Below, one piece after another: positions 7,057-60,606 of a stretch of DNA of 64,000 bases (position 1 is the first letter of the stretch; every line of letters starts with the position of its first letter). The stretch lies in the IMG/VR virus record IMGVR_UViG_3300021399_000101, positions 1,630 through 65,629 of that record; one strand, 5' to 3'. The position numbers were made by a program, and so were the translations under genes. The stretch is from a virus (Duplodnaviria > Heunggongvirae > Uroviricota > Caudoviricetes). The notes under the pieces were generated by a model that made no database searches, was not told the DNA's origin, and saw only the letters and a list, made by a program, of their open reading frames with translations.

Positions 7057-8790
7057 ATGCTTTTAAATGAGAGTGGAATAAGACTACCAAAAGGAACAAA
7101 AAGCGCTACAATTTTAACGCACCGTGACTTAGATGGATTTGTTTCTGGACTTTTAGTATATAATCAATTAATAAGGCAGGGAATCCCTGCAGAAAGAATA
7201 AATATAAAATTTGTTCAGTATGGCGATAATGATATACTTGATAAGGCAACCAGAAAAAACAAGAATCAAGCAATATTATCATGTGACTTCTCTGCATTTC
7301 CAAAAATAAACATGGAAGACAGCTGGAATGGTTTTGCAAAGACATATGACAAAGAAAAAGACAGAAATTTCAGTCCTGATAAATCTGCAAGTTATGAATC
7401 TTTCAAGAAGCAGTTCATAAATTCAAAACCAAGCTTTAAAACAATTTCTGATTTCCTTAAGAAAAACAATCCGAATGCTGTTCTGTTCGCGAAGCCAAAA
7501 GACTCATCAGTAAGAATTTCATTGGAAAACTTTATTAATGGGTGGAAGTCACACAAAGGAAACGATGATGTTGCCCTTACAGATTTAGATTGGACATCTG
7601 ACCATCACTCAAACGAAAAAGGCGATTTGGTTCCTGGAAAATCCGGAAAGATAGGAGCCAATTATCCTTCTGACTCAGAGCATATAGCAACTGTTGCAGC
7701 CCAAGGCTTAATGAATTGGGATGATATAGAAGCAGTATCGAGAGTAGACTCAGCCAAATATAAAAATTTGAAAGATGTTTTATCTCTTCCATCTGCTCTT
7801 GGAAGCAAAGACAGAAAGGAAAGGCTTGCTATATTAATTACTGCAATGATAGGCCCTATTGTATCAAATAATGATAGGCTTGCAGAATTAATGATCAAGC
7901 GTTCAACACCAAGTTTAATATCCATATATAATAATGCTCTTAAGATTGCAAAGCTTACAGATAACGAGCTTAAGGTTCTAAGCGAGCTTAAAAATGAAAA
8001 GCCAGATTGGAATTTAATAAACGAACTGACAAAAGACCTTCCTGAGCATGAAAAGAAAAAACTTCTTCAGAACAGAGATGAAAACAAGAAAATAAAACCT
8101 GTTCAGAGTGTTGATGCTTTAAGAAATAAAAACATCAACAACATTGAAAGAGAAAAAAAGATTGATAAATCTGATTTTAAATTCTATGGAAATATAGCAG
8201 TATTTGAATCAAGAGTAAGAACTGACCAACCATCAAGATATTTATTCGCATTCTTGGAGCATGAAGGTAAACAGCCAGCTTTCTCAATAAGAAAATTCCC
8301 TGGAATGGGAATGATTCAAGTATCATGTTCTCCGCTTCTTTCCGAAAAAGATAAAGAATCAATTGACCTAGAGGCTGTATGTAAAGATGCTATAAAAGCC
8401 GCTAAAGAAAAAGGGCTTCTAAATGACTTTACGGAAAAGCTCATTCTTCAGAAATCCGGTGGCCATAAAGCAATTTATAATTTAAGTAATCTTGGTATAG
8501 TTGGAAATATAACACCAACACCAGGAGAAAGATATAGAATTAAAGACTTAACTGATTACGAAAACAGAAGAAAAGCGCTTTATAAGAATGCAGTTTCTGA
8601 ACTTACAAAGAAAAACGCAAAAGCACTTCCAAATAAAGGAAAAGAGCTGGAATCTTTAAAATCAATTAAAAGTAAGGCAAATAAAGAGGTATATGATTTC
8701 TTAGTTGATTATATAATAAGAGAGCTTAAATCTAGATATGGAAATATACAACCCAAGTTGTCAGACTTTAAGATAAAGATGGAGAATTGA
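7057..8790 (+). CDS. DHH/DHHA1-family phosphoesterase
   Basis: ILTHRDLDG (motif I), SCDFS (II), TSDHH (III), and C-terminal SGGHKA (DHHA1-type GGH). Confidence 0.75.
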   Translation: MLLNESGIRLPKGTKSATILTHRDLDGFVSGLLVYNQLIRQGIPAERINIKFVQYGDNDILDKATRKNKNQAILSCDFSAFPKINMEDSWNGFAKTYDKEKDRNFSPDKSASYESFKKQFINSKPSFKTISDFLKKNNPNAVLFAKPKDSSVRISLENFINGWKSHKGNDDVALTDLDWTSDHHSNEKGDLVPGKSGKIGANYPSDSEHIATVAAQGLMNWDDIEAVSRVDSAKYKNLKDVLSLPSALGSKDRKERLAILITAMIGPIVSNNDRLAELMIKRSTPSLISIYNNALKIAKLTDNELKVLSELKNEKPDWNLINELTKDLPEHEKKKLLQNRDENKKIKPVQSVDALRNKNINNIEREKKIDKSDFKFYGNIAVFESRVRTDQPSRYLFAFLEHEGKQPAFSIRKFPGMGMIQVSCSPLLSEKDKESIDLEAVCKDAIKAAKEKGLLNDFTEKLILQKSGGHKAIYNLSNLGIVGNITPTPGERYRIKDLTDYENRRKALYKNAVSELTKKNAKALPNKGKELESLKSIKSKANKEVYDFLVDYIIRELKSRYGNIQPKLSDFKIKMEN

Positions 8791-8792
8791 AA

Positions 8793-9488
8793 ATGACACT
8801 CAGAGAAGACATTATAAGATATAGCGGTGAAACTCTTGAAGAGGGTAAGTTTAAAAACTTCCTTATAGCAAGTCTTGTTACAGCAGCAGCAGTTGCAGCA
8901 GCAATAAAAGGAGTTCCTGCTGGTAAAGCAGCATATGAGCAGTATAAATACGCATCTGCTCAGCCTACAAGTATGAAATACATGAAGGCTGATATGAATG
9001 CAAACAGGCAAGTTGCCAATTGGAGAGGAGAGGTAACAGTTTACACTCATTATGCAGTTGGTCAGAAGCAGCCGATTCTTGATATAGATATACATATGCC
9101 AAGATATGTCAGAGCTTCAATAAGCGGAAAATCTGAAAGAACAGAGATAGCCGAAGAAATTCAAGACCAGATTCTTGAACAGCTTGATGGATATCTTGAC
9201 GAAATAAAGAGAAACAGCAGCAAACTCGAAAAGTATTTCAGCAAGGATACATATATCGGAGATGTTAAGCCGCTTAAGGTTCAGATTGACTTTAAGGCAA
9301 CAGATAAGGAAATCGAAGAAATTGACGACGCCAAACTGTCCGATAAAGAAAGTGCAAAAGCAGAGTTCAGTTGGCTTTCTAGAATTGTAGGACTAAATAT
9401 TTCCAATGAAGTCGCAAGAAAACTTGGCATTAACAGAGAGCATGTTGACATTTTCATTAACGGTCAATCAGCAGCATTTAAAAAATAA
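8793..9488 (+). CDS. Putative capsid-internal/ejection protein with a hydrophobic helix
   Basis: MTLREDIIRYSGETLEEGKFK followed by hydrophobic LIASLVTAAAVAAAI. ATG 8793 has SD GGAG and is preferred over TTG 8787. Confidence 0.65.
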   Translation: MTLREDIIRYSGETLEEGKFKNFLIASLVTAAAVAAAIKGVPAGKAAYEQYKYASAQPTSMKYMKADMNANRQVANWRGEVTVYTHYAVGQKQPILDIDIHMPRYVRASISGKSERTEIAEEIQDQILEQLDGYLDEIKRNSSKLEKYFSKDTYIGDVKPLKVQIDFKATDKEIEEIDDAKLSDKESAKAEFSWLSRIVGLNISNEVARKLGINREHVDIFINGQSAAFKK

Positions 9489-9499
9489 GAGGAAATAAT

Positions 9500-10162
9500 A
9501 TGGCACTTATTACATTAAGAGAAGAAGTTTTAAAGAATTCAGGAATTTTAACCGAAGAAATATTGGAAGAGGGGTTCTTCAAGAAAGCTCTTGCTATTGC
9601 TACTGTTATTGCTGCATTGGGTGGAGCTGCATTTATTGGCCCAAAAGTAACAAAAGAAGTAAAACAGTATAAGAATGTCAAGGATGTTCCAGTTGCGACA
9701 AGATATGAAAAGGCTGATATAGAAACAAATAAAAATATCAAGAACAAAGAGTATGAGAATACTTTTAAATCAAGCTGGATTAACAAAGTTTTCGAAAAGA
9801 TGAAGTATGTCAAATCTATTAAGTCTGAATATAATGACAGAAACAATCAGGCTGTTTTGAATATCTATATTGATTTTTCGTTTGAAGGCGGCGACCTTAT
9901 AGAAGCACAAGATAGATTAAAAGAAGAAATCACATCAGCTTTTAATGAATATACAACATATTTAAACAATCAATATAGTAAAATAGAGGATAAAATTGGA
10001 AAAACAGAATTCAATAGAACTCCATTGAAAGTTGTCTATAATATTTCAGTTTCAGATTATATTAGAAGTTATATGAAAAAAGTCAATGTTCTTAGAACTG
10101 ATGAATTAAGACGTATAGCCAAACAATATACTGGAACAGATTCTGTTGAATTTGCTTTTTAA
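9500..10162 (+). CDS. Putative capsid-internal/ejection protein; N-terminus paralogous to 8793..9488
   Basis: TLREEVLKNSG...ILEEGFFKK followed by hydrophobic ALAIATVIAALGGAAFIG. Confidence 0.65.
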   Translation: MALITLREEVLKNSGILTEEILEEGFFKKALAIATVIAALGGAAFIGPKVTKEVKQYKNVKDVPVATRYEKADIETNKNIKNKEYENTFKSSWINKVFEKMKYVKSIKSEYNDRNNQAVLNIYIDFSFEGGDLIEAQDRLKEEITSAFNEYTTYLNNQYSKIEDKIGKTEFNRTPLKVVYNISVSDYIRSYMKKVNVLRTDELRRIAKQYTGTDSVEFAF

Positions 10163-10196
10163 TGAAAAATAAATAATCAGCAATTTGTAAAACTCA

Positions 10197-10223
10197 AAGC
10201 GGTCTTCGGGCCGCTTCTTTTTT
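10197..10223 (+). terminator. Rho-independent terminator fused to a promoter motif
   Basis: AAGCGGTC-TTCG-GGCCGCTT-CTTTTTT, then AAGTTAAAT. Confidence 0.85.
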
Positions 10224-10239
10224 AAGTTAAATTATAGGT

Positions 10240-10860
10240 ATGCCTGGAACAATAGTAAGTTGGATATTAAATAGAATAAGAATGTTCGGTAATAGATTTT
10301 CTGGAACATTCGGAAACTCATATAGAGTCATGTATGCTGGAACTATAGTCAAAATGACATATTCCAATTATAAACATGACCCAAATCCTTTAATCTTTGT
10401 TCTTTATTCTGGCGTAAAATATACTCATGCGCTTAATCTAAATTATTTAAATCAGCAAGAAAAACAATATATAGGAAGATTAATATACGCTCTTAGAAGA
10501 GGAAATCAAATTATTGATGGACATTCATTATATATGATTCTTAAGAGAGACGTATATTATAGTATAGTAAGGAAATGTTATAGGACATATTTTTCAAATC
10601 TTATAATGAATCCTAAAATGGTAAGTGCCGGGTTTACACCGTTAAATAGACTTGTTTATCCATATAATGACCCATTCGTTGTAGCACTTAATAGATATTT
10701 AAATAATGAAAATTTAAACTATACACAGCCAACTCAAATCTCTTATTATCCGCAAGAGTTAAGAGATAGAATAAATCTGGCAATACATAGCGTACCAATA
10801 GGAAGAGCAACAGTACCTGCTACTACTCCTGCTACCACACCAACTATCAGAAATGTTTAA
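10240..10860 (+). CDS. T4 gp2-like DNA end protector
   Basis: MTYSNYKHDPNPLIFVL...ALNLNYL...KCYRTY resembles the recalled gp2 pattern (F.Y..K..D..PL..GLNLHYL..C...Y). Confidence 0.5.
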   Translation: MPGTIVSWILNRIRMFGNRFSGTFGNSYRVMYAGTIVKMTYSNYKHDPNPLIFVLYSGVKYTHALNLNYLNQQEKQYIGRLIYALRRGNQIIDGHSLYMILKRDVYYSIVRKCYRTYFSNLIMNPKMVSAGFTPLNRLVYPYNDPFVVALNRYLNNENLNYTQPTQISYYPQELRDRINLAIHSVPIGRATVPATTPATTPTIRNV

Positions 10861-43569: not shown

Positions 43570-44928
43570 ATGAACGAAACTACAAGAACATACTACATTA
43601 ATAAAGCTGAAGAATTTGAAAAAGCTTCCAATTATAAAGATGCATTGTCTTCTTATATGGAAGCTTTTTCTATTAAAGAGTGTTTGGAAGGCGACAATCC
43701 AGATTTTTTTGAGCCTGGCTTTATAGAGGATAAAATAGCGTTTCTGTCTTATAGACTTGGAGATTTTAGAAAGGCAGTTACTTTTGGTGGAAAAGCATAT
43801 AGAGCAAACGAAAAAGACGAAAGAATTAAAAACAATGTCCCGTTTTATACAGACGCTTTGTTCTTTTTAAATAAAAAACCTATTTTTGATGGATTCATAA
43901 AAAAATATATTATTGATAATTTTTCGAGCGATACTACAATCCTTGATGTTGGAGCATATGATGGAAGATGGTCAGATGCGCTTAAAGAGCATTTCAAAAA
44001 AATAGATGCAATTGAGGCTTTTGAACCTTATGTTGAACGTTACTCCTTAAAAGAAAAATACAATAATGTTTTTGTTCAGGACGTATGTGATTTCAAATTT
44101 AAACATTATGATTTGATTATAATGGGTGATGTTCTTGAGCATTTGCCAATTGAAAAAGCACAGCAACTTATTAAGAAAATATATTCTAAGTGCAAGCAGC
44201 TTTTAATAATAGTGCCATATGAATACCCCCAAGACGAATACGATGATAATAAATATCAAATTCATGTTCAAGAAGACCTTACAGACGAGATATTTAAAGA
44301 GAGATATCCAGGATTTGATTTGCTAGCGCACGATGAAATAAGAGGGGCTTATGTAAAAGAAGGAACCTGTAGTGAAGCAACTGAAATTACATATACTGGC
44401 GAAAACCCAAGAACCCTTGAGGCCGGATTGATTTACTTTGAAAGCCGTGAATATAGCAAAGCACTTGGAGTATTCAGAAACTCATTAGAAGAAATGAGCA
44501 ATGAACATAAAGCAATAATGAAGTATTATTCAGGACTTTGCTACACAAGAAACAACGAGAACACTTTAGAGGCTTTAAAATATTTTATTGATGCGGTTGA
44601 ATTGCTTCCTATTTTTGAAGAAGCATATGTAGAGCTGTTCGCACTTTTAGAGAAATTTGAGTTATGGGGTGATTTAGAGTATTATATAAGGCTTGCTCTA
44701 AAACATAAAGAAGAAATGGAAATGCCAGATAATATGAAGAATGAATGGAAATCAATTCTTTTCATTCAAATGACTTTGGCCCTTTTCAAGCAAGAAAAAT
44801 ATTTTGAGGCTTATGGATATGCGACATTAGCTCTTGATATACCGACTAGCGACGAAAGAAAAAAGATTGCTCAAAATAATTTTGACCAGCTTAAAGAAGC
44901 ACTTTGGAGTACATTACAACTACAATGA
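43570..44928 (+). CDS. TPR - class I SAM methyltransferase - TPR protein
   Basis: TILDVGAYDGRW, AIEAFEPY, YDLIIMGDVLEHL; TPR helices on both sides. Confidence 0.8.
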   Translation: MNETTRTYYINKAEEFEKASNYKDALSSYMEAFSIKECLEGDNPDFFEPGFIEDKIAFLSYRLGDFRKAVTFGGKAYRANEKDERIKNNVPFYTDALFFLNKKPIFDGFIKKYIIDNFSSDTTILDVGAYDGRWSDALKEHFKKIDAIEAFEPYVERYSLKEKYNNVFVQDVCDFKFKHYDLIIMGDVLEHLPIEKAQQLIKKIYSKCKQLLIIVPYEYPQDEYDDNKYQIHVQEDLTDEIFKERYPGFDLLAHDEIRGAYVKEGTCSEATEITYTGENPRTLEAGLIYFESREYSKALGVFRNSLEEMSNEHKAIMKYYSGLCYTRNNENTLEALKYFIDAVELLPIFEEAYVELFALLEKFELWGDLEYYIRLALKHKEEMEMPDNMKNEWKSILFIQMTLALFKQEKYFEAYGYATLALDIPTSDERKKIAQNNFDQLKEALWSTLQLQ

Positions 44929-46463
44929 AAACATGCATTTACACAATATGTAAAAACGACTCTAAATTTATAGATAAATGGTTTGACTCTTTAAAAGATT
45001 ATGATTGCATTGCAGCAGTAGTCCATGACAGCAAAGACAATACAGCAGAAAAACTTTTAGCTTATGGAGCTAAAGTAGCTTTCACCCATTATCAGAATGA
45101 GCCAAACACCGCTGAAGAAGACGCTTTAAATTTTGCTAAACAAGTAGCGCCAGATTGCGATAACTTTGTGTTTACTCCTATTAACAGAACTGATGAATAT
45201 TTGAGTGATGATGCTTCAATATCAGAACAAGAAAGCAGGCTAGTTGAATATTATTATGGTATTAAAAACTATGAAGAAGCATATAGGCACGCTATTTTTG
45301 CTTTAGCACTTGACCCAGAAAACGAGCAGAAAAAGCATAATTGCGAAATCTGCCGCAGGTTGGTTGTAAACAAGATTTGCGTATATACGGTTTGCAGAAA
45401 TGAATCAGAGTTCGTAGAAAAATGGGTTGAAAACAATAAAGACGCAGACCACATCGTTGCTTTGGTTCACGATTGTACTGATGATACAGCTGAGAAACTC
45501 AAAGCGCTTAATGTAGATGTCGGCTATGGTTTTTATAATGAATGGAGATTCGATAATGGCAAGAACGATTCAATGCACCTTGCCTATTCACTTGCCCCGG
45601 AATGTAACATATTTGTGTTTACTTCTTTAGATGAATTCTGGGAGACGGAAGATTGGGTACGTATTGTAAAGGAATGCTGGGGCCCCGAAACTACCAAGCA
45701 ATGCTGGTACAACTTCGTTCAAACACATGATGAGTTTGAGAACGACACTGGAATAACGCATTTTAACTGGATGACATCAAGAGATCCGAAATGGCACTGG
45801 GAGTATCCAATTCATGAATCAATTTCCTATGGTGATAACGAAGAAGTAAAAGACTGTATTAATTTATTTGATGTCTTAAAACTTCAGCATCGCCCTAAAA
45901 AAGGAAAAGTCAGAAGTTATATGGACCTCCATAAGCTTAGGTGGGAAGAATATAAAGATGATATAAGCTGCCTTTATTTAATTCGTGAGAATATAATCCA
46001 TGGATTTGCTGAAGAAGCGTATAGAATAGCAAAAGATTTTGACCATGAGCATACCGATTTACAACCTGAGGAAAATGCATACATCTGGATGATGGAAGGT
46101 ATGTGTCTTGAATATTTTGGGAGAACAGGCGAAGCGCTTAAATGTTATGAAAATGCTTATGAGGTGGATAAGTCGCTAAGGTCACCCCTTATTAGAGCAG
46201 GCTTACTTTATGCAAAATGCGAAATGTATAGCAAGGCAGAAGAAATTATCGAAAAAGCGCTTAATGAAACAACAAGAAATTATACATGGCTTGAAGACCC
46301 ATGGGACTGGAGAAGTAAGCCGTATTATTGGTTGTCATATATAAATCTAAAACTTGGGAATAAAGAAAAAGCCCTGGGCTATGCACTATTTGCTTATCAG
46401 ATAGATTCAACAGATGAATTAAAAGAACATTACGAAAAAGTATTAAAAGAATGTACGTCTTAA
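44925..46463 (+). CDS. GT2-family glycosyltransferase with TPRs and a duplicated N-terminal half-domain
   Basis: ICVYTVCRNESEFVEKW...DCTDDT...SLDE...WEYPIHE; C-terminal TPRs; start MKTC at 44925 overlaps the previous stop (ATGA). Confidence 0.8.
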   Translation: MKTCIYTICKNDSKFIDKWFDSLKDYDCIAAVVHDSKDNTAEKLLAYGAKVAFTHYQNEPNTAEEDALNFAKQVAPDCDNFVFTPINRTDEYLSDDASISEQESRLVEYYYGIKNYEEAYRHAIFALALDPENEQKKHNCEICRRLVVNKICVYTVCRNESEFVEKWVENNKDADHIVALVHDCTDDTAEKLKALNVDVGYGFYNEWRFDNGKNDSMHLAYSLAPECNIFVFTSLDEFWETEDWVRIVKECWGPETTKQCWYNFVQTHDEFENDTGITHFNWMTSRDPKWHWEYPIHESISYGDNEEVKDCINLFDVLKLQHRPKKGKVRSYMDLHKLRWEEYKDDISCLYLIRENIIHGFAEEAYRIAKDFDHEHTDLQPEENAYIWMMEGMCLEYFGRTGEALKCYENAYEVDKSLRSPLIRAGLLYAKCEMYSKAEEIIEKALNETTRNYTWLEDPWDWRSKPYYWLSYINLKLGNKEKALGYALFAYQIDSTDELKEHYEKVLKECTS

Positions 46464-50507: not shown

Positions 50508-51686
50508 ATGGCTCAACTAACATCGACGATTATATATGGCGCGCTATCAGTAACAGATACTATAAGTGAAAGTGGAACTTTGCTTTCTGCAAAATATGCT
50601 GCCAAATCTCATTCACATACTTATGTTCCTGCTGGTACTATAAGCGTTGGGAGCGGAACTGCCAACTACACCCCAACAGGTTCAGTAGGAGTTTCTGTAA
50701 CACAACACTCTTACACCCCAACAGGCTCAGTAGGAGTTTCTGTAACACAGCATTCTTACACACCAACAGGCTCAGTATCTGTAAGTATTACTGACCATAG
50801 TTATACACCTGCTGGTACTATAAGCACTGGAACCGGAACTGCCAATTACACTCCAACAGGTTCAGTAGGAGTTTCTGTAACACAACACTCTTATACTCCA
50901 ACAGGTTCAGTATCTGTAAGTATTACTGACCATAGTTATACTCCAGCTGGAACTATAAGTACTGGAACTGGAACTGCCAACTACACCCCAACAGGAACTG
51001 TGTCTGTAAGTATTACTGACCACTCTTATACTCCAACAGGAACTGTGTCTGTAAGTATTACTGACCACTCTTATACTCCAACAGGAACTGTGTCTGTAAG
51101 TATTACTGACCACTCTTATACTCCAACAGGAACTGTAAGCGTATCGCCATCATTAAGCGCAACATACACATCTGGAACTAAAACTTTGGCATTAGGTGTT
51201 TCTGCTTCTGGAAGTTTCTCTGGTTCGGCAGCTACATTGTCACACACAAGGTCTGGAAGCTTTACTGGTACAAAAGCAACGCTTTCACATACAAGGTCAG
51301 GAAGTTTTACTGGTACTGCAGCTACATTATCGCACACAAGGTCTGGAAGCTTTACTGGTACTGGAAAACAGCTTGTGTTCTCTGGCTCAGCAGCTACATT
51401 ATCGCATACAAGGTCAGGAAGTTTCACTGGTACTGCAGCGACACTTACACATACGGCTTCTGGAAGCTTTACCGGTACTGGAAAACAGCTTGTGTTCTCT
51501 GGTTCGGCAGCAACGCTTTCACATACAAGGTCAGGAAGTTTTACTGGTACTGCGGCTACATTATCGCATACAGCTTCAGGAAGTTTCACTGGTACTGCAG
51601 CGACACTTACACATACGGCTTCTGGAAGCTTTACCGGTACTGGAAAACAGCTTGTGTTCTCTGGCACAACAGGAACAGCATCCTAA
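50508..51686 (+). CDS. Mirror-repeat His/Thr/Ser-rich needle-like fibre protein
   Basis: N-half TPTG(S/T)VSVS(IT/VT)(D/Q)HSY units; C-half ATL(S/T)HT(R/A)SGSFTG units in inverse order. Confidence 0.75.
   Translation: MAQLTSTIIYGALSVTDTISESGTLLSAKYAAKSHSHTYVPAGTISVGSGTANYTPTGSVGVSVTQHSYTPTGSVGVSVTQHSYTPTGSVSVSITDHSYTPAGTISTGTGTANYTPTGSVGVSVTQHSYTPTGSVSVSITDHSYTPAGTISTGTGTANYTPTGTVSVSITDHSYTPTGTVSVSITDHSYTPTGTVSVSITDHSYTPTGTVSVSPSLSATYTSGTKTLALGVSASGSFSGSAATLSHTRSGSFTGTKATLSHTRSGSFTGTAATLSHTRSGSFTGTGKQLVFSGSAATLSHTRSGSFTGTAATLTHTASGSFTGTGKQLVFSGSAATLSHTRSGSFTGTAATLSHTASGSFTGTAATLTHTASGSFTGTGKQLVFSGTTGTAS
50994..51130 (+). repeat. Three exact tandem 45-bp coding repeats
   Basis: GGAACTGTGTCTGTAAGTATTACTGACCACTCTTATACTCCAACA x3. 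Confidence 0.9.
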
Positions 51687-51706: not shown

Positions 51707-51736
51707 AAACCCAGCCTAAAAGCTGGGTTTTTATTT
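51707..51736 (+). terminator. Rho-independent terminator
   Basis: AAACCCAGC-CTAAAA-GCTGGGTTT-TTATTTC. Confidence 0.8.
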
Positions 51737-51749
51737 CTTATATAATTTT

Positions 51750-52325
51750 ATGGATAATAATTATGTTTTTGCTTTAGATGTTGACGGTGTTCTCACTGAT
51801 GGAAAGTTTTTGTGGGACGCCGAAGGAAATAAAGCTTATAAAGAATTTGGCCCAGACGATGCTGATGCTCTTAAAATTCTTGCAAGATATATGCCTGTAG
51901 TTCTTTTTTCTAAGGACGGCAAAGGCTATAAAATTTCAGAAAGCAGGGCTAACCATATGGGCTTTCCAATCTACTATATGGATACGCAAGAAAGGCTTGA
52001 TTTTATTGCCAAAGTGTTTGGTGTTTCAAATGCAATTTATATGGGAGATTCTTTCATGGATGTGCCTGTATTAAAATTGTGTAAGTATGGCATAGCCACA
52101 GATACTTCTTCACCTTATGCAAAAGAAGCAGCCGATTATGTTACTACAACAGGTGGAGGAAACAGAGCGGTTGCCGAAGCTTGTTTTTGGATTATGAAAA
52201 ACGTCTTGAAAATGAATTCTGTAGAGCTGATAACAGGCGCTTCCTTAGAGCTTGACAACAAACCATGCGAATTAAAAACTTATGAGATGGGATTATATGA
52301 TATACGAAAAAGAAATTCTAAATGA
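51750..52325 (+). CDS. KdsC/YrbI-like HAD sugar-phosphate phosphatase
   Basis: ALDVDGVLTDG, YMGDSFMDVPVL, DYVT...GGNRAVAE. Confidence 0.85.
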   Translation: MDNNYVFALDVDGVLTDGKFLWDAEGNKAYKEFGPDDADALKILARYMPVVLFSKDGKGYKISESRANHMGFPIYYMDTQERLDFIAKVFGVSNAIYMGDSFMDVPVLKLCKYGIATDTSSPYAKEAADYVTTTGGGNRAVAEACFWIMKNVLKMNSVELITGASLELDNKPCELKTYEMGLYDIRKRNSK

Positions 52326-52860
52326 AATAAAGCAAGTACTTGACTCAATAGACGATAAAGATGTAGATAAACTTGTTGAAATGATTGAGTCGTCTGATAA
52401 GGTTGTCGGCTACGGGGCTGGAAGAATGGGGTTAAGTGTTAAAGCATTCATAATGCGCCTTAATCATCTTGGCATAAATGCGTACTACGTAGATGACACA
52501 TATATCCCGCCATTAACCGAATTCGATTTGCTTCTTGTATCAAGTGGTTCTGGTGAAACCACAATGGTAAAGACATTTATGAAAAAAGCCATTGAAAAAA
52601 CCGGATGCGCTGCAGCAGTAGTCACAGGAGACAAAGATTCAAGCATGGCTAGAATGGCTAATCTTGCTGTAACATTTAAACCTTGCAACGGTGGCTTAAA
52701 TTCAGCTGATTCAATTGAAAAAATAAATTCAATCCAGCTTATGAGTACTCTTAATGAGCAGGCTACATATATTTTGTTTGATATAATAGCAAAAAGAATC
52801 GCTGATGATTTGAATATGGACACTGAAAAAACAAAGAGGTACCACTTCAATGTCGAATGA
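52297..52860 (+). CDS. SIS-domain sugar-phosphate isomerase (HxlB/PHI-like)
   Basis: VVGYGAGRMG...AFIMRLNHLG, LLLVSSGSGET, MSTLNEQ; start MIYEK at 52297 preferred. Confidence 0.85.
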   Translation: MIYEKEILNEIKQVLDSIDDKDVDKLVEMIESSDKVVGYGAGRMGLSVKAFIMRLNHLGINAYYVDDTYIPPLTEFDLLLVSSGSGETTMVKTFMKKAIEKTGCAAAVVTGDKDSSMARMANLAVTFKPCNGGLNSADSIEKINSIQLMSTLNEQATYILFDIIAKRIADDLNMDTEKTKRYHFNVE

Positions 52861-52864
52861 AAAC

Positions 52865-53020
52865 ATGATAGTTTTTTCAGATTGGTTACTTGTATGTAAT
52901 ATGGATTATGATAAGAAATTTATTGACCTGAATAAATTAAAAAACATCAAATCGCCAAATATACCTATAAAATATTTAGGAAAAATAAAAATAAACAGGA
53001 ATTTAAAGAATGTTAAATAA
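52865..53020 (+). CDS. Small 51-aa ORF filling the gap between the SIS and epimerase genes
   Basis: Own translation MIVFSDWLLVCNMDYDKKFIDLNKLKNIKSPNIPIKYLGKIKINRNLKNVK; below the ORF-track cutoff; overlaps the next start. Confidence 0.45.
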   Translation: MIVFSDWLLVCNMDYDKKFIDLNKLKNIKSPNIPIKYLGKIKINRNLKNVK

Positions 53021-53738
53021 AATAACCGCTTCACTTATTTGCATGGATTTATCTGATATAAAAACAGATATAGACACACTTCTTGATAACGGAATAAATT
53101 CTCTTCATGCCGATTTTATGGACAATACATTTGTTCCGAGGCTTGGAATAAGTCCAGAGCTGATAAAGTGGATAAAAAACAGGTACGGCGACAATGTTCA
53201 TATAGATTCTCATCTTATGGTTCAAAATCCATATCAGTGTATAGATGTAATAGCTCCGTTCTCAGACTGGGTTTTCTTCCATTATGAAGCAGTTTCTGAC
53301 CCCGTGAGAATATTGCAGAAGCTCTGTGAACATGATGTAAAGAAAGGGATAGTTTATAATATAGGGACAGATACAAACGAATCTTTGATTAATACAAATC
53401 TTGTCAATGGTGTTATGTTTATGGGTATCAGCCCTGGGGTTCTGGGAACAAGGTCCTGGCCTGAAATCTTAAAAGAGAAGATGATACAACACAGATGTAT
53501 AATTGAGCGTATAATAAAGCATGATGACATTCCTGTATTTCTTGACGGAGGAATAGATTTCAATTCAATAGGTGAACTTACAAAAGACTTGAATATTATA
53601 TTCAGTTCTTGCAAGGGAGCAGATAAGGTTGTCTGCGGCTCATCCACTTTGTTTAAAATAGATGATGATACCTGCCTCATGGATAGAGAGGAAATGATTA
53701 AATTCAATATCCGCAGAATTGAAGAGGCAATGCAATGA
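53010..53738 (+). CDS. Ribulose-phosphate 3-epimerase family (Rpe/AlsE-like)
   Basis: ASLICMD, LHADFMDNTFVPRLG, DSHLMV, FHYEA, FMGISPG, LDGGI, VCGSS. Confidence 0.9.
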   Translation: MLNKITASLICMDLSDIKTDIDTLLDNGINSLHADFMDNTFVPRLGISPELIKWIKNRYGDNVHIDSHLMVQNPYQCIDVIAPFSDWVFFHYEAVSDPVRILQKLCEHDVKKGIVYNIGTDTNESLINTNLVNGVMFMGISPGVLGTRSWPEILKEKMIQHRCIIERIIKHDDIPVFLDGGIDFNSIGELTKDLNIIFSSCKGADKVVCGSSTLFKIDDDTCLMDREEMIKFNIRRIEEAMQ

Positions 53739-53956
53739 AAGTAAAAGAACTTATAAAAAAGCTTGAAACTTATGACCCTGAATATGATATGATGATAGCG
53801 CTTCCTCCGGGATGGTATAAAGAGGAAGACACTGAAAACGAAGAGATTTGGGAAAAAGACGGTTGGAGTCTTGATTCCATAGATTATGTAATTATCTCAG
53901 ATAAAAACAGATTTGTGTCAGTATGCCCTATTAACGCTCCAAAGGAAATAGAATGA
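53735..53956 (+). CDS. Small hypothetical protein (MxVKELI-type N-terminus)
   Basis: MKVKELIKKLETYDPEYD; coupled on both sides. Confidence 0.7.
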   Translation: MKVKELIKKLETYDPEYDMMIALPPGWYKEEDTENEEIWEKDGWSLDSIDYVIISDKNRFVSVCPINAPKEIE

Positions 53957-55572
53957 GAACAGTAGTAATTCCTTCTGCCGGTACAGGCTCACGTCTCGGC
54001 GATTTTACTAAAAACTATAACAAAGCCATGTGTACGCTTGGCCCCAAGCCTGTAATCTCTTACATTATAGAACATTTCACCAAGGAAGATGAGATTATAA
54101 TTCTTCTTGGATATAAAGGAGACTTACTCAGGCAGGTAGTCAAAGCATGCTATCCTGACTGGAATATAAAATTTGTCGAGGTTGATATTTATGAAGGCCC
54201 AAGAAGCGGTCTAGGTTATTCTCTTTCAAAAGCATATGATTATTTACAAAAGCCGTTTATCTTCTGGCCCAATGACACGCTATTAGAAAACGACATAAAT
54301 GACATGCTTTATGATAACAACTGGATTATAGTCGGCAGCCACGAGCAAGATTCCAGAAGTTATAGACACGCTATAGGAAATAAGAATGATAACAGCTTGA
54401 CGATGATTCTTCCAAAATCTTCAATTGGATATAAATTTTCTTATCCTTATACTGGAGTTTGCTTCGTAAAAGACTATGAAAACTTTTGGGACGCTTTTCG
54501 TTCTAATAGAGAAACTTTTATAAATGAAGGAGAGGTAATCGGTTTAAACAATCTCGATAACATAATAATTTATCCTGCAGAAAGATGGATTGACACAGGC
54601 AATAAAGAGCTGTTTGAAAAAGCCAAAATCGAATACTCAAGAAGAATGGAAGAAACAGTACTGGAAAAACCAGACGAGGCAATTTGGTTTATTGATAGCA
54701 GAGTTATCAAATTCCATATTGATAAAAAGTTTATATCTGATAGGGTAAAAAGATTTGGCACATTACTTTCTGATGGCCAAAAAAAGGCCGGAATGAAAAT
54801 ACCGAAGCTTCTTTATCATGATGAGAATGTTTATGTCTATAAAAGAGAACCTGGGATAATAGCTTCCAGGGAAATAGATATAAGTGTTTTTGACCGTCTC
54901 CTTGATGGGTTCTTCAGGTTTAAAGAGGAAAAACTAACAGACGAAGAAGCTTTAAGAATTTATACTGATTTTTATAGAGATAAAACAATTTCCAGAATAA
55001 ATAAATTTTGCGATGAAAATGGAGAATCAGATGGAGAGCCTGTTTTTATAAATGGACTTGCGTGTAGGTCGGCTCTAGACCTTGTTAAATTAATCAATTG
55101 GGAATACATTTCAAAAAACGGAGTTTTTACAAAAAACTATCATGGAGACTTTCATCTTGAAAACATATTAATTCAAAAAGACAATTTCGTGTTACTTGAT
55201 TGGAGGCAAAACTTCGGCAAGTCTGAAATAGGCGATGCCTATTATGACCTTGCTAAAATGTGGCACTCTTTAATAGTCAATCATATGATGGTTAAAGATA
55301 TGAGGTTCACAGTTGAAAATGTCGGAAGAAACTCAATCAAAATAGACATAGACAGAACATTTATAGATACCGAATGCGAGAATGACCTTAAAAACTACAT
55401 TGAAAGAAACTTCATACTGGAACAGGCTGAATTACTTACATGCTTAATATTTCTTAATATAGCCGCTTGTCATGTTTATCCATATTCAAGGTTTTTGTTC
55501 TATCTAGGAAAATACCTACTTAACAGTTTTTATTATAGACATATAGACAGTAAAATATTTAAGACCGCTTAG
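53953..55572 (+). CDS. Bifunctional sugar-phosphate nucleotidyltransferase plus APH/choline-kinase-like kinase
   Basis: VIPSAGTGSRLG...NKAM (nucleotidyltransferase), WIDTG; C-terminal YHGDFHLENIL, LLDWR, YYDLAK (APH fold). Confidence 0.85.
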   Translation: MRTVVIPSAGTGSRLGDFTKNYNKAMCTLGPKPVISYIIEHFTKEDEIIILLGYKGDLLRQVVKACYPDWNIKFVEVDIYEGPRSGLGYSLSKAYDYLQKPFIFWPNDTLLENDINDMLYDNNWIIVGSHEQDSRSYRHAIGNKNDNSLTMILPKSSIGYKFSYPYTGVCFVKDYENFWDAFRSNRETFINEGEVIGLNNLDNIIIYPAERWIDTGNKELFEKAKIEYSRRMEETVLEKPDEAIWFIDSRVIKFHIDKKFISDRVKRFGTLLSDGQKKAGMKIPKLLYHDENVYVYKREPGIIASREIDISVFDRLLDGFFRFKEEKLTDEEALRIYTDFYRDKTISRINKFCDENGESDGEPVFINGLACRSALDLVKLINWEYISKNGVFTKNYHGDFHLENILIQKDNFVLLDWRQNFGKSEIGDAYYDLAKMWHSLIVNHMMVKDMRFTVENVGRNSIKIDIDRTFIDTECENDLKNYIERNFILEQAELLTCLIFLNIAACHVYPYSRFLFYLGKYLLNSFYYRHIDSKIFKTA

Positions 55573-55586
55573 GGCGGTCTTTTTTT
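55561..55586 (+). terminator. Rho-independent terminator
   Basis: AAGACCGC-TTAGG-GCGGTCTT-TTTTT. Confidence 0.85.
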
Positions 55587-55651: not shown

Positions 55652-58600
55652 ATGGCAAATACAAAGACCTATTTTAACACTATAACCTCTGTTGACTCAG
55701 TAGACGATTCCAATATAATTGTTGTTCAAACTGCAGACAGCGCCAGTCTTGCGACCATGGCAAAAACAACCGTAGGAGCATTACGCGCTCCTTTAAAAGA
55801 AGCCGCTTCTTCTAACGCTTCTTTAGTGTCTTCTGAGGCCTCAAGAGCCGCATCTTCAGAAGCCTCCTTGGCTGAAGCAATTGCCTCTGAAGCTTCTCGT
55901 GCAAAAGCCAGCGAAGCTTCATTGAGTTCGTCAATTACTGCAGCTATTGATGCTCTTGATACAACAGGAACATATGGTGGAAACGGAAAATATATAAAGC
56001 AAATTTCAGAAGAGAATGGAATAATTGTTCCAGTAGAAGAGACTCTTGAAACAGACATAGAAAACAATTCAACCAAAGCGCCTACAACTTCTGCAATAAA
56101 GACTTTTGTAGAAAGTAAAATAAATGGCTTAGACTTAAATGAGGTTGGCGGAACAGGTCGTCTTGTACAATCAGTTTCACAGGCAAACGGAAAAATATCT
56201 GCTACAGCAATTGAATTAGACAGTAATTTATCGAGTTCGCCAAATAAAGTTCCAACTTCAGAAGCAATCTATAACGCAATAAACAGTTTGGATGGAGAAG
56301 TCGGTGGAACAACCAAACTTGTAAAAAAGGTTGAAGAGACTAATGGTAAAATCTCCGGAGAGACAATTGATTTAGTTGATACAGTTACAAACAATCCAAA
56401 TGCAGTTCCTACATCTTTGGCTGTTTATAACAAGCTTGGAGAGTTCGTTACAACAGCACTTGACGCTTTGGATTATAGCTCTGGAGCAGCTGGATATTAT
56501 TTTGATTCAATTACCCAGAACAACGGAAAAATTCTCACTACTTCCAAGAAATTTGATACATACAGCTATCAGGGCGGAACAGCAGCTGGCACCTGGTCTT
56601 CTGGCGCTCCTTCTGATTTAAACACACCAACTTCTCAAGCTGTTAAAAATTATACAGACTATAAAGCAGCTGTAATTGACAATAGGATTGATAATACAAA
56701 CTATAGTCATTCTCAAACACAAACTGGAGTCGCTGATGGAACATATTTGTTACAAGTAACACAATCTTCTGGAGCGATAAAAGCCAGCAAAGCTGCTTTT
56801 GAGAATGCAACTATCGCCAGTTATGTAAACTCAGTTTCAGCAAGCTCAGGCTCTTACGCCGGAAGAGTTGATACAGCCCCTACAGTTCGTGCCGTTACAG
56901 AACAGATTAAGAGACTTGATGGAAGAATTGATGAAGCAAACGCCGGGCTTACAGCATTAAGCACAGGCCCATTTGGCTCAACTGGAGCATATATTTCCAA
57001 AGTAGAACAAAGGCAGGGATATATTTCAGCTTCAACTACAAACTTTGCAACATCAATTAAGGCAAGCACTACAGAGGCAGATAACGTTCCTCCAACCGAA
57101 CATGCAGTAAGGTCTGCAATCAATGCGCTTGATGTTGCCCAAATCGGCGCAAATGGAAGCTACATCAGATTTGTTGTCGAGACAGATGGTAAAATCAGCG
57201 CTACTCCTGTAGGCTTCGACCATTTTGATGCTGCGTGCTCTGCTTCTGCTTGGGATAGCGTGACAAATAATAATTCACCTTCTACATTAGCTGTTAAAAA
57301 CTTTGTTCTTAGAGTAAAGAGCGATATTCTTGAAGACACTAAGGCAATGACTTATGAAGGAACAGTTGGTAGCTTAAATGCTTTAAAAAATAAGAAGCCT
57401 TTCAATCAGGGTGATACTTATATAGCAACTGCAAAATTCAATCTTGAAAGCGACTCTGGTGTACAAGTAAAATATAACGTAAACAAGGGCGACATGCTTA
57501 TATGTAAGAACACCCCATCGCCTGACCCAAATGCATATGACAAAGACAATTTCGATATTATTGGCGGAAGCGAATATCAGATAGTATTTAATGGTACAAC
57601 TTCTGTAGTGAATAATATCCCTGTATTTGATAGTACAAATGGAACAGTTCTTAAGGATTCTGGCGAAAGCATTGATACCGTAATACAGAAATCTGCCAGC
57701 GCTGCTAGTGCAGCCGCTTGTTCTGCTAGTGCCGCTGCTTGTGCAGCAAGCTCTGCCATATTTGCTGACCTTGGCGTAGAGCCATATATTAATAGTGCTG
57801 CCAGCGCTGCTAGCGCAGCAGATGCTGCTAGGTCTTGTTCTGCTAGTGCTGCCACAGCAGCAGATGGAAAGAGGTCTTGTTCTGCCTCAGCAGCTACAGC
57901 TGCTAATACCGCTAGAGCTAGTGCTGTCTCAGCCGCTACAGCCGCTGATACTGCTAGGTCTTGTTCTGCTAGTGCTGCTACAGCTGCTAACACCGCTAGA
58001 GCTTGTTCCGCCTCAGCAGCTACAGCTGCTTCTAACTCAGCAACAGCCGCTGATACCGCTAGAGCTTGTTCTGCTTCATCTGCCACAGCAGCAGAAACTG
58101 CCAGGTCTTGCTCTGCTAGTGCTGCTGCAGCAGCAGATTTGCAAAGAGGAATAGCAAAAAGCAACGCTGATGCAGCTATTGTGTCAGCAAATACTGCTGA
58201 TACCGCCAGAGCTTGTGCTGCTAGTGCAGCAACAACCGCTGATGGAAAGAGGTCTTGTTCTGCTTCAGCAGCTACAGCAGCAGATACCGCTAGGGCTTGC
58301 GCTGCATCATCCGCTACAGCTGCTTCAGGGTCAGCAAATACCGCTGATACCTCTAGAGCTTGTTCTGCCTCAGCAGCTACAGCTGCTAATACCGCTAGAG
58401 CTAATGCTGCCACATCCGCAGGAGCTGCTGATACCGCCAGGGCTTGTGCTGCTAGCGCTGCTACGGCTGCCGATGCACAAAGGGGTAATGCTGCCACATC
58501 CGCAGGAGCTGCTGCAAACTCAGCAACAGCCGCTGCCACATCCGCAGGAGCTGCTGCAGACTCAGCAACAGCAGCAGAAACTGCCAGGTCTTGCTCTGCT

Positions 58601-59731
58601 AGTGCTGCTACAGCAGCAGATGGAAAGAGGTCTTGTTCTGCTAGTGCTGCTACAGCAGCAGATGGAAAGAGGTCTTGTTCTGCTTCAGCTGCTACAGCAG
58701 CAGAAACTGCCAGGTCTTGTGCTGCCTCAGCTGCTACAGCCGCTGATACTTCTAGGTCTTGTTCTGCTAGTGCTGCCACAGCAGCAGATGGAGAGAGATC
58801 TTGTTCTGCCTCAGCCGCTACAGTAGCAGAAACTGCCAGGTCTTGCTCCGCTTCAGCCGCTACAGCTGCTGATACCGCTAGAGCCAGTGCTGCTAGTGCT
58901 GCTACAGCTGCTGATACCGCTAGGGCCAGTGCTGCTAGTGCTGCTACAGCTGCTGATACCGCTAGGGCTAGCGCTGCATCATCCGCTACAGCTGCTTCAG
59001 GGTCGGCTACAACTGCTGATACCGCTAGGGCCAGTGCTGCTAGTGCCGCTACAGCTGCTGATACCGCTAGAGCCAGTGCTGCTAGTGCTGCTACAGCTGC
59101 TGATACCGCCAGGGCTAGCGCTGCATCATCCGCTACAGCTGCTGACACATCTGCCGCATGTGCTGCCTCGTTTGCTGCTGCTGCAAATCTTAATGGAATA
59201 AAAGACGCAGCAAGTCTGTCAGCAAGCAGAGCAGCATCTTCTGCCTCTTGTTCATCAAGTTCTGCACAAGTTTCTGCATGTGCCGCAAGTAAAGCTTACT
59301 CCTGTGCGGCATCCTATGCTGACACGAAATATACAGCCGCTGCCTCTTATGCAAATACTAAAGTAAGTAAATCGGGCGATACAATGAGCGGAGGTCTTTA
59401 TCTTCCAAGCCTCACAGCCTCTGGAAACATAATAGCAAGTTCATTTGAAGCTAACTCATCAAGAAAGCTTAAAGAGAACATAAACCCCGTAATAATTTCA
59501 GCACTTGATATTATAAAGGATGTAAACGTCGTCAATTTCAACTATATCAATGATGAGGAAAAGACACCACACATCGGATTTATTGCAGAAGATACTGATA
59601 AGATTTTGAGTACACCGCATATGAATAAAATGGATTATACAAACTGTATCGGAGTCCTTTTGAAAGCGGTTCAAGAAATCACAAAGGGAATTGACAAGCT
59701 CGAAAAGCGTATTGATAAAATAGAGAAATAA
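55652..59731 (+). CDS. Tail fibre (1359 aa): beta-hairpin repeats, Ala/Ser/Cys coiled coil, C-terminal S74 chaperone
   Basis: Repeated ..V.Q.NGKIS.. hairpins; TARSCSASAATAAD repeats; SSRKLKENI...IGFIAED...CIGVLLKAVQEI. Confidence 0.85.
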   Translation: MANTKTYFNTITSVDSVDDSNIIVVQTADSASLATMAKTTVGALRAPLKEAASSNASLVSSEASRAASSEASLAEAIASEASRAKASEASLSSSITAAIDALDTTGTYGGNGKYIKQISEENGIIVPVEETLETDIENNSTKAPTTSAIKTFVESKINGLDLNEVGGTGRLVQSVSQANGKISATAIELDSNLSSSPNKVPTSEAIYNAINSLDGEVGGTTKLVKKVEETNGKISGETIDLVDTVTNNPNAVPTSLAVYNKLGEFVTTALDALDYSSGAAGYYFDSITQNNGKILTTSKKFDTYSYQGGTAAGTWSSGAPSDLNTPTSQAVKNYTDYKAAVIDNRIDNTNYSHSQTQTGVADGTYLLQVTQSSGAIKASKAAFENATIASYVNSVSASSGSYAGRVDTAPTVRAVTEQIKRLDGRIDEANAGLTALSTGPFGSTGAYISKVEQRQGYISASTTNFATSIKASTTEADNVPPTEHAVRSAINALDVAQIGANGSYIRFVVETDGKISATPVGFDHFDAACSASAWDSVTNNNSPSTLAVKNFVLRVKSDILEDTKAMTYEGTVGSLNALKNKKPFNQGDTYIATAKFNLESDSGVQVKYNVNKGDMLICKNTPSPDPNAYDKDNFDIIGGSEYQIVFNGTTSVVNNIPVFDSTNGTVLKDSGESIDTVIQKSASAASAAACSASAAACAASSAIFADLGVEPYINSAASAASAADAARSCSASAATAADGKRSCSASAATAANTARASAVSAATAADTARSCSASAATAANTARACSASAATAASNSATAADTARACSASSATAAETARSCSASAAAAADLQRGIAKSNADAAIVSANTADTARACAASAATTADGKRSCSASAATAADTARACAASSATAASGSANTADTSRACSASAATAANTARANAATSAGAADTARACAASAATAADAQRGNAATSAGAAANSATAAATSAGAAADSATAAETARSCSASAATAADGKRSCSASAATAADGKRSCSASAATAAETARSCAASAATAADTSRSCSASAATAADGERSCSASAATVAETARSCSASAATAADTARASAASAATAADTARASAASAATAADTARASAASSATAASGSATTADTARASAASAATAADTARASAASAATAADTARASAASSATAADTSAACAASFAAAANLNGIKDAASLSASRAASSASCSSSSAQVSACAASKAYSCAASYADTKYTAAASYANTKVSKSGDTMSGGLYLPSLTASGNIIASSFEANSSRKLKENINPVIISALDIIKDVNVVNFNYINDEEKTPHIGFIAEDTDKILSTPHMNKMDYTNCIGVLLKAVQEITKGIDKLEKRIDKIEK
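57700..59200 (+). repeat. 14-residue-period (7+7) coding repeat array
   Basis: (D/E/N)(TA/GK)R(S/A)(C/S)(S/A)ASAATAA units. Confidence 0.9.
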
Positions 59732-59796: not shown

Positions 59797-60606
59797 ATGA
59801 TTAAAATTTTGCATTATATAAAAGAAGACTATTCAGGCAGCGCCGAAAGATTTTGCGTAAGCACATACAAAGAACAGTATCCTGACTTTGAGTTCATGGC
59901 ATGGAAGCCGGGCTCATCCCCTCTCAGGATTCTTTATGATAATGGGGGGATTTTCATAGGTCCTCATATTTATTCAAAGAAGAGATTGCCAGATTCTTTT
60001 TTTGAAAAGTCGTTTCTCATTTTCGACAATGCATTTGAAACTGATACGGTTAATATAGATTTATGTTGCTACTCAGATTCAAAAGAGAACCCGTTGTTTC
60101 TTGAGTTCATGCAAAACGGAATCATGCCGACTTTAAGGAAAAAAGGCTTCGAGAACGATTTTAAAGTCGGATTAAATAAAAGGAAACAAAGCCTTGATGA
60201 TATTGACATTTTAAATAGTGATATTATTGGGTTTGAAAAGAAGTCTTACGAAATCTATCAGGATGCATATCTTATGGATATGAATTTTGATTTGAGCAAA
60301 ATATCAGATGCCAATTTACATTATTTGATAATAAATGAAAGCAGCGACCCAAACAAAATATTTTCAGTTGTTGAAAGTTACGGCAAAATAGACTACAAAG
60401 ATGAAAGCAAACATTTCATGATTATTGTATCTACCGGCAATCTTGATTTGACAGAGAGAATGTGTACTTTGCTTCAATATCATTGCGCTTATGAGGATAA
60501 GAGATGGGATGTGATATTTGGAGAAAAGAAAAAAATAAATGAGATAATCACTGAATATATAGGCAGAAAATTCAACGATGTTGTAAGCTGTGAGAAGCTT
60601 TTATAA
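59797..60606 (+). CDS. Degenerate GT32/OCH1-like (capsular-polysaccharide-synthesis-like) protein
   Basis: YKEQYPDFEFMAW...RILYDNGGIFI matches the GT32 N-terminal pattern, but GPH replaces DxD. Confidence 0.5.
   Translation: MIKILHYIKEDYSGSAERFCVSTYKEQYPDFEFMAWKPGSSPLRILYDNGGIFIGPHIYSKKRLPDSFFEKSFLIFDNAFETDTVNIDLCCYSDSKENPLFLEFMQNGIMPTLRKKGFENDFKVGLNKRKQSLDDIDILNSDIIGFEKKSYEIYQDAYLMDMNFDLSKISDANLHYLIINESSDPNKIFSVVESYGKIDYKDESKHFMIIVSTGNLDLTERMCTLLQYHCAYEDKRWDVIFGEKKKINEIITEYIGRKFNDVVSCEKLL

Follow-up and report, generated by a model that had tools for sequence, protein, structure and literature searches.

Phage-made sugar nucleotides have only recently been tied to anti-restriction DNA hypermodification. 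Here we analyse a putative sugar-nucleotide cassette of six genes at positions 51750-55572 of a 64,000-nucleotide stretch of viral DNA (the window), which corresponds to bases 1630-65629 of a 207,680-bp IMG/VR virus record (IMGVR_UViG_3300021399_000101, referred to here as G000). Its nearest precedent is the phage Afh arabinose pathway, not the heptose pathway. According to PMC13326640 (which cites He et al. 2026 and Mahler et al. 2025), the phage route to nucleoside diphosphate (NDP)-arabinofuranose uses an SIS arabinose-5-phosphate isomerase, AfhE (a nucleotidyltransferase-kinase fusion) and AfhF (a HAD phosphatase). The Afh genes are gp55, gp52:53 and gp51 in RB69 and gp83, gp82 and gp81 in DLP3, and are also found in HY126. 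The same source describes the route as shown biochemically, giving UDP-arabinofuranose for arabinosyl-5-hydroxycytosine DNA, and lists LicC (1jyk), MurU (4y7t) and choline kinase/APH as structural neighbours of RB69 gp52:53 and DLP3 gp82 (PMC13326640).

The ADP-/GDP-heptose pathway (GmhA, HldE or HldA, GmhB, HldC/HddC) has a four-step logic in which a bisphosphate intermediate replaces a mutase. LicC/LicA (CDP-choline) and AmgK/MurU (UDP-MurNAc salvage) pair an APH-fold small-molecule kinase with a minimal nucleotidyltransferase, and act on choline or a free amino sugar. An earlier note on this DNA had proposed that the cassette follows the heptose logic with different enzyme families, leading from a central sugar phosphate to an NDP-sugar. 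That proposal is supported by our analysis and by the biochemistry of the Afh pathway with its matching bifunctional nucleotidyltransferase-kinase (PMC13326640). Judging from the encoded enzymes, the cassette very probably makes an NDP-sugar by isomerase, kinase, phosphatase and nucleotidyltransferase logic.

G000 is a T4-like jumbo phage of ~208 kb rather than a capsule locus. Its T4-like gene set includes gp32, a UvsX-like recombinase, the T4 baseplate, gp19 tail-tube, a prohead protease, a primase and a split DnaE-type polymerase. CheckV puts its completeness at 88%, so that ~12% of the genome is possibly absent. The cassette consists of six open reading frames (ORFs) on the plus strand, with neighbours overlapping by 4-44 nt. 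It is laid out as follows:

51707..51730, + strand: left-boundary terminator-like hairpin that closes off the fibre-like gene upstream (9-bp stem with 5 GC pairs and a T-tail)
51750..52325, + strand: KdsC-subfamily HAD phosphatase (TIGR01670 E 1.3e-14; PDB KdsC 4um5 E 1.9e-15)
52282..52860, + strand: PHI/HxlB-clade SIS sugar-phosphate isomerase (TIGR03127 E 1.8e-38; B. subtilis YckF 1m3s E 1.3e-25; MJ1247 1jeo E 1.3e-14)
52850..53020, + strand: small Lys/Asn-rich ORF, 56 aa (a 74% identical 57-aa ORF lies in the same place in loci L018 and L019)
53010..53738, + strand: Rpe/AlsE-family ketose-phosphate 3-epimerase (PF00834, Ribul_P_3_epim, E 9e-31)
53735..53956, + strand: small acidic ORF, 73 aa (87% identity to L020:9720-9941)
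53953..55572, + strand: nucleotidyltransferase-APH kinase fusion, 539 aa (Pfam NTP_transf_3 and APH)
55561..55581, + strand: terminator-like hairpin at the right boundary, at the stop codon of the fusion gene

The strong terminator-like hairpins at both ends indicate that the six genes form a discrete transcription unit. We assigned families with Pfam and NCBIfam profiles and by comparison with solved structures (PDB). These matches, together with intact motifs, bear out the four enzymes that the earlier note had placed here; the operon also holds two conserved small ORFs (52850-53020 and 53735-53956) that the note had missed.

The HAD protein scored 54.5 bits against TIGR01670 (KdsC KDO-8-P phosphatase, where KDO is 3-deoxy-D-manno-octulosonate; also NF007019), under the cut-off of 107. 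Its motifs I and IV (DxDG...GDxxxD) are intact and invariant in 9 homologues. Because of the sub-cut-off KdsC score, and because no KDO-8-P synthase family (DAHP_synth_1/KdsA) was found in a profile search of G000, as the note had anticipated, we rejected a KDO pathway for this protein. The SIS protein, whose likely true start is at 52297 by alignment with relatives, scored 132 bits against HxlB TIGR03127, under the equivalog cut-off of 160. It has an intact SxSGxT motif that is invariant across relatives, and its profile and structure matches are to HxlB/PHI only, with no match to a KdsD/GutQ-type arabinose-5-phosphate isomerase. A ribulose monophosphate pair, in which it would act as a 6-phospho-3-hexuloisomerase (PHI), was likewise rejected: it falls below the cut-off, and the partner expected for PHI, a hexulose-phosphate synthase (HPS/OMPDC, OMPdecase family), was absent from a profile search of G000.

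The epimerase matched the structures of Rpe (7u5y, E 3e-18) and AlsE (3ct7, E 1.5e-16), with scores of 109 bits against the Rpe equivalog (TIGR01163, cut-off 212.6) and 95 bits against AlsE (NF007266, cut-off 271). Its metal and catalytic residues (His-x-Asp, DxH, DGG) are kept and invariant across relatives. The phosphate-loop region reads SPGVLGT and differs from the PGFGGQ/PGFAGQ of Rpe and AlsE. All cassette enzymes score below the curated equivalog cut-offs of their housekeeping namesakes, which marks them as divergent members rather than plain Rpe, HxlB or KdsC.

The fusion combines an N-terminal sugar-1-phosphate nucleotidyltransferase (~residues 1-235) with a C-terminal kinase of the APH/choline-kinase fold. 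Its AlphaFold2 model, built on 25 homologues, reached a predicted local distance difference test (pLDDT) score of 90.8, and the closest solved folds for its domains are 1jyk, 4r77 and 4y7t. In this model, the nucleotidyltransferase domain matched GalU (Z 23.1), LicC (Z 23.0), MurU (Z 21.2) and HddC (Z 20.9), with RmlA also among the sugar-1-phosphate transferases that score on a par with LicC; the kinase domain matched LicA (Z 15.5), fructosamine-3-kinase (14.9) and also APH(4). The nucleotidyltransferase GxGxRL...K and kinase HGDxxxxN...D motifs are invariant across relatives. The family is large: a word-indexed database search returned 1408 relatives of the fusion, and an exhaustive profile search found 719 representatives of 50%-identity clusters at E <= 1e-30. 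A blastn search of the locus against 50,697 phage records gave no match, and a tblastn search of the phage collection with the fusion found no RB69 match, its sole full-length match being Marine virus AG-345-E15. One member, P0267, carries at its N-terminus a GIY-YIG/NUMOD3 homing-endonuclease module, which is either a true fusion to the nucleotidyltransferase-kinase or a gene-calling error.

The order HAD, SIS, epimerase, nucleotidyltransferase-kinase recurs on phage contigs. The earlier note had suggested searching capsule loci for the four-gene set; we found the set, in order, on at least 8 other contigs. Since these contigs share the order at 40-81% identity and have flanks unrelated to those of G000, the linkage goes far beyond chance. 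This bears on whether the genes act separately as auxiliaries of the pentose-phosphate pathway or of central carbon metabolism, with Rpe and PHI raising the supply of nucleotide precursors, and form no NDP-sugar. Rpe and PHI are central-metabolism families, and phage-borne pentose-phosphate genes are known in cyanophages. However, all four proteins fall below the housekeeping cut-offs, PHI has no HPS partner in G000, the order with the nucleotidyltransferase-kinase is fixed across unrelated phages, and the genes lie in a single terminator-bounded unit. We consider the chance that they act separately close to negligible.

We propose the following route for the cassette. The 3-epimerase and the PHI-clade SIS protein would convert a host ketose phosphate (ribulose 5-phosphate (Ru5P) or xylulose 5-phosphate, or fructose 6-phosphate (F6P)) to a rare aldose phosphate, and the C-terminal kinase domain of the fusion would phosphorylate C1. 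The KdsC-type HAD enzyme would then strip the sugar bisphosphate of its terminal phosphate (C5/C6), and the N-terminal nucleotidyltransferase would join the resulting sugar-1-phosphate to a nucleoside triphosphate. The kinase and phosphatase would thus stand in for a phosphomutase, as they do in the heptose pathway and in the AfhE/AfhF route.

Both the cassette and Afh are phage-borne and have an SIS isomerase, a kinase, a HAD phosphatase and a nucleotidyltransferase. Both carry one protein with an N-terminal nucleotidyltransferase and a C-terminal APH-fold kinase, with shared structural neighbours, and cassettes of sister clades (see below) occupy the genomic spot of the RB69 arabinose genes, between polB and uvsX. 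The homology of the fusion to RB69 gp52:53 is only faint: BLASTP gave two collinear matches (28% over 99 aa, E 6e-4, and 26% over 172 aa, E 0.01), and hhalign gave moderate probabilities (72% for gp52 and 46% for gp53). In contrast to Afh, the cassette SIS is of the PHI/HxlB clade rather than KdsD-type and has no pairwise similarity to RB69 gp55, the HAD is KdsC-type and has no pairwise similarity to RB69 gp51, and an Rpe/AlsE-family epimerase is obligatory. The genomic setting differs as well, since the G000 cassette lies among tail fibres, and the record, at 88% completeness, lacks a ThyA homologue (5-hydroxy-dCMP synthase) and a GT-B arabinosyltransferase. Going by sequence and predicted fold, logic and core enzyme architecture are common with Afh, the partners are non-orthologous, and an epimerase has been added.

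The heptose pathway itself can be set aside. Pfam and NCBIfam searches gave no match to a GmhA isomerase, a PfkB or GHMP heptose kinase or a GmhB-type phosphatase, in agreement with the earlier note, which had seen no heptose signature. The nucleotidyltransferase domain resembles HddC in fold (6jq8), and matches its profile only weakly (NF049965, 28.7 bits against 300). The cassette kinase has the APH/choline-kinase fold rather than that of PfkB or GHMP, the phosphatase is KdsC-type and not GmhB, the isomerase is PHI-clade and not GmhA, and there is an extra epimerase.

The fold matches of the fusion raise another explanation, in which it is a LicC/LicA-type phospho-alcohol activator (CDP-choline-like or CDP-polyol) and the other three genes supply or trim the alcohol. 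LicC and LicA are among its best fold matches, and some homologues carry the JGI name 'choline kinase'. However, the sugar-1-phosphate transferases GalU, RmlA, MurU and HddC score equally well, and AfhE-type enzymes have the same LicC/choline-kinase neighbours, yet make UDP-arabinose. LicC/LicA and AmgK/MurU come without isomerase, epimerase or phosphatase partners, whereas the fusion is strictly linked to sugar-phosphate isomerases and epimerases, which have no role in choline activation. We therefore judge a phospho-alcohol product very unlikely.

This linkage extends to variant cassettes, in which a homologous fusion (34-40% identity) lies by a sugar-phosphate isomerase, with or without a HAD gene. 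In place of SIS and Rpe, these cassettes use a cupin PMI-type isomerase for entry, accompanied by an SDR or a GatZ/KbaZ-like protein. In Marine virus AG-345-E15 (L002) the fusion is accompanied by a cupin PMI-type isomerase, a HAD protein and an SDR dehydratase/epimerase. On a Melainabacteria contig (L023), in a clearly cellular context, it lies with a GatZ/KbaZ-like protein and a cupin isomerase, so the nucleotidyltransferase-kinase family is not restricted to phages. P0260 is a natural single-chain triple fusion of cupin isomerase, nucleotidyltransferase and kinase, which ties an isomerase directly to the nucleotidyltransferase-kinase enzyme.

The caution of the earlier note that the product cannot be read from sequence holds: for the choice between pentose and hexose, the epimerase scores about equal to Rpe and AlsE, with a phosphate loop unlike both. 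Our confidence in any particular named sugar is accordingly low. Because the epimerase is obligatory in the cassette, and because a variant pairs an epimerase-like (GatZ-like) protein with an isomerase, we infer an aldose product whose C3 configuration is inverted compared with the common pool, namely a xylo- or lyxo-furanose from Ru5P, or allose or altrose from F6P. It is probably not arabinose; arabinofuranose is possible if the epimerase only feeds Ru5P.

We next consider where the sugar may go. In G000 the cassette is embedded in a fibre island, whose features in the window are:

44904..46463, + strand: TPR-containing GT2-like glycosyltransferase, candidate NDP-sugar user (TPR_2 E 1e-7, weak Glyco_tranf_2_4)
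50508..51686, + strand: 392-aa repeat protein directly before the cassette, candidate glycosylation substrate (42% Ser+Thr, 13% Gly)
55652..59731, + strand: tail fibre of 1359 aa with a C-terminal S74 intramolecular chaperone (PF13884 E 7.7e-11; PHROG tail fibre)
59797..60606, + strand: divergent GT32 paralogue that lacks the DTD motif (similar to the GT32 at G000 73473-74519, BLASTP E 5e-17; no Pfam match)

In tblastn searches the TPR-GT2 gene matched jumbo-phage genes annotated as GT2 or beta-1,4-glycosyltransferase (E 1e-14). The 392-aa protein contains ~12 'HSYTPTGSVxVSxT' repeats and ~9 'ATLSHTRSGSFTGT' repeats. Past the window, the island continues with four tandem weak radical-SAM-like genes (G000 66130-69929, window coordinates 64501-68300), a clear carbamoyltransferase (G000 70135-71820) and two GT32 genes on the minus strand (73473-75519). 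The glycosyltransferases encoded by G000 all lie in this island and have no predicted membrane span.

A quick maximum-likelihood tree resolved well-supported clades that coincide with genomic context. Clade A comprises the G000 window, L018, L020 and L021 (62-95% identity, 100% support in the SH-aLRT branch test), and all four loci are in fibre context, with the cassette placed between Ser/Thr/Gly-rich fibre-like genes and a large S74-chaperone fibre. Ser/Thr/Gly-rich proteins stand at the equivalent position in L018 and L021, where a homologue of the 55652..59731 fibre also follows the cassette, and TPR-GT2 homologues lie upstream of it in L018 and L020. The companions of the clade A cassette are TPR-methyltransferase, TPR-GT2, GT32 and radical-SAM genes. 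In this clade, the soluble TPR-GT2 and GT32 enzymes of the island would use the NDP-sugar to O-glycosylate the Ser/Thr-rich fibre proteins.

Mycobacteriophages, reportedly described by Freeman and colleagues in 2023, offer a parallel in their virion glycosylation, with glycosyltransferase genes next to capsid and tail genes. The likeness lies in phage glycosyltransferases beside structural genes whose proteins have Ser/Thr-rich stretches. Those phages use host sugar nucleotides, whereas G000 would also make its own activated sugar, and its island adds methyltransferase, radical-SAM and carbamoyltransferase genes.

Several relatives of the cassette point instead to DNA. Clade B (L004, L006, L007, L009 and L010; ~55% identity) has the cassette after an unannotated 415-aa protein and before polB and uvsX. 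A divergent ThyA homologue lies 10-12 kb from the cassette in all four clade B records searched (L004, L006, L007 and L010). These ThyA homologues (L013-L016, ~250 aa) read QRSCD...F-D, keeping Cys146 and Asp169 and having Asp in place of Asn177. Among ThyA homologues, D169N is the mark of 5-hydroxy-dCMP synthases; since Asp169 is kept and residue 177 is Asp, we predict that the clade B proteins are dCMP hydroxymethylase-like and not 5-hydroxy-dCMP synthases. As a lead, the 415-aa protein may be T4 beta-glucosyltransferase-like; its fold model was poor (pLDDT 54), and tblastn gave one unannotated match. It proved unrelated to the 392-aa protein upstream of the G000 cassette in a pairwise comparison. 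A third clade (P0037, on a 244-kb contig) has genes for a ThyA homologue and a C5 methylase no more than 4 kb from the cassette. On a megaphage-sized contig, L003 (JGI 3300028833) has the order DUF4422 glycosyltransferase, SIS, epimerase, nucleotidyltransferase-kinase, HAD, and its neighbours are a Mom-like gene, a 719-aa SAM-synthetase-containing protein and a dUTPase; its protein P0074 also occurs on a 656-kb ENA megaphage contig. In these sister clades the same cassette most likely supplies the sugar for hydroxymethylcytosine DNA.

The NDP-sugar could feed DNA hypermodification in G000 too, going onto a hydroxylated base as in RB69-type phages, with the base-modifying enzyme in the unsequenced ~12% or in an unrecognised family. 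Besides the sister clades, the published Afh precedent is itself a DNA pathway. Known DNA glycosylation needs a hydroxylated pyrimidine, whose source is a ThyA homologue or the action of TET on 5-methylcytosine. However, profile searches of G000 with valid controls found neither the ThyA family (PF00303) nor a C5 DNA methylase, and tblastn of G000 with the relatives' ThyA-like gene and the RB69 arabinosylation-cluster proteins gave no match. There was also no G000 homologue of the clade B 415-aa protein or of the RB69 glycosyltransferases, and a scan of 30 replication-module proteins of G000 showed nothing suggestive of base modification. (Searches of G000 for DUF4422, Tet_JBP and T4-Gluco-transf were uninformative, as their controls matched nowhere either.) For ordinary dTMP, G000 encodes a ThyX homologue (192768-193715, minus strand), which at 315 aa is longer than typical and matches the Thy1 profile in two stretches. 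The open end of the record stops at a gp19 tail-tube gene, which makes structural genes the probable content of the missing part, and the fibre context is kept in four loci of one clade. On balance, we regard DNA as an unlikely acceptor in G000, with a chance well short of even.

The sugar might alternatively go onto a host structure (capsule, teichoic acid, lipopolysaccharide or S-layer), for instance in a superinfection block or receptor remodelling. GT2 and GT32 enzymes mostly act on glycans, the GT32 shares Pfam matches with capsule-synthesis proteins, and the related nucleotidyltransferase-kinase on the Melainabacteria contig has an ordinary cellular context. The transferases of the island are all soluble, however, and Pfam and profile scans of the island showed no flippase, polymerase or lipid-carrier gene. 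Their interleaving with fibre genes is conserved, and TPR domains fused to glycosyltransferases, as in FlmG and OGT, typically bind protein substrates. A host-surface target thus seems improbable to us.

The context of G000 leads us to prefer the Ser/Thr-rich fibre proteins as acceptor, at a confidence near the midpoint, given the absence of ThyA and C5 methylase matches, the presence of ThyX, the confinement of glycosyltransferases to the fibre island and the neighbour with 42% Ser+Thr. Several points count against this picture. Both the order of reactions and the sugar are taken over from biochemistry done with the HY126 system, a distant relative, and neither the SIS nor the HAD protein is orthologous to its Afh counterpart. 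With G000 at 88% completeness, a base-hydroxylating enzyme could sit in the missing part. In three sister clades the cassette is associated with DNA metabolism, so that the ancestral acceptor may have been DNA. Fibres are commonly rich in Ser/Thr in any case, and the terminator-bounded unit itself holds no glycosyltransferase. Taken as a whole, the explanation that the cassette is a self-contained sugar-nucleotide unit of a T4-like jumbo phage, virion-directed in G000, strikes us as evenly balanced. More tentatively, and with considerably less confidence, we suggest that one mobile cassette makes an undescribed 3-epimer-type NDP-sugar (NDP-xylo- or lyxo-furanose, or NDP-allose or altrose) for two acceptors, hydroxymethylcytosine DNA in the polB-context clades and Ser/Thr-rich fibres in clade A.

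If virion glycosylation with a home-made sugar is borne out, G000 would be the first known example of a phage supplying its own activated sugar for this purpose. It would link the fields of DNA hypermodification and virion glycosylation, and bear on protease resistance, mucus and host binding, and recognition evasion of gut and rumen phages. The core kinase/phosphatase/nucleotidyltransferase module is widespread and has interchangeable entry enzymes, which suggests a family of activated sugars awaiting chemistry. Rare NDP-sugars could also be made with the cassette enzymes, as biocatalysts that need no mutase.

Some smaller features of the clade A loci complete the description. In L018 (15569-18508), downstream of the cassette and fibre, a 578-aa protein (19% Cys, 27% Ser+Thr) is followed by a radical-SAM gene, which could point to thioether-type cross-linking of a fibre-associated protein. 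In L021, the large fibre gene downstream of the cassette is immediately followed (8453-10389) by genes for a reverse transcriptase (RVT_1) and a phage integrase, which may represent a diversity-generating retroelement acting on the fibre.

In G000, a candidate promoter motif, TATAATTTT, shared by the regions ahead of the HAD and fibre genes, had 5 matches against 4.6 expected and was dropped. The start of the HAD gene (window 51740-51752) has no visible Shine-Dalgarno sequence, and a TATAAT hexamer ends 4 nt before the ATG, right after the upstream terminator; its mRNA may be leaderless or unusually initiated. Neither the 56-aa nor the 73-aa ORF had a match in a Pfam search, and since both are kept in relatives they are probably real genes. 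The 73-aa ORF between the epimerase and the nucleotidyltransferase-kinase is more conserved than the enzymes, at 87% identity in L020 against 64-79% for the flanking genes (64% for the nucleotidyltransferase-kinase), the pattern of a strongly constrained small protein.

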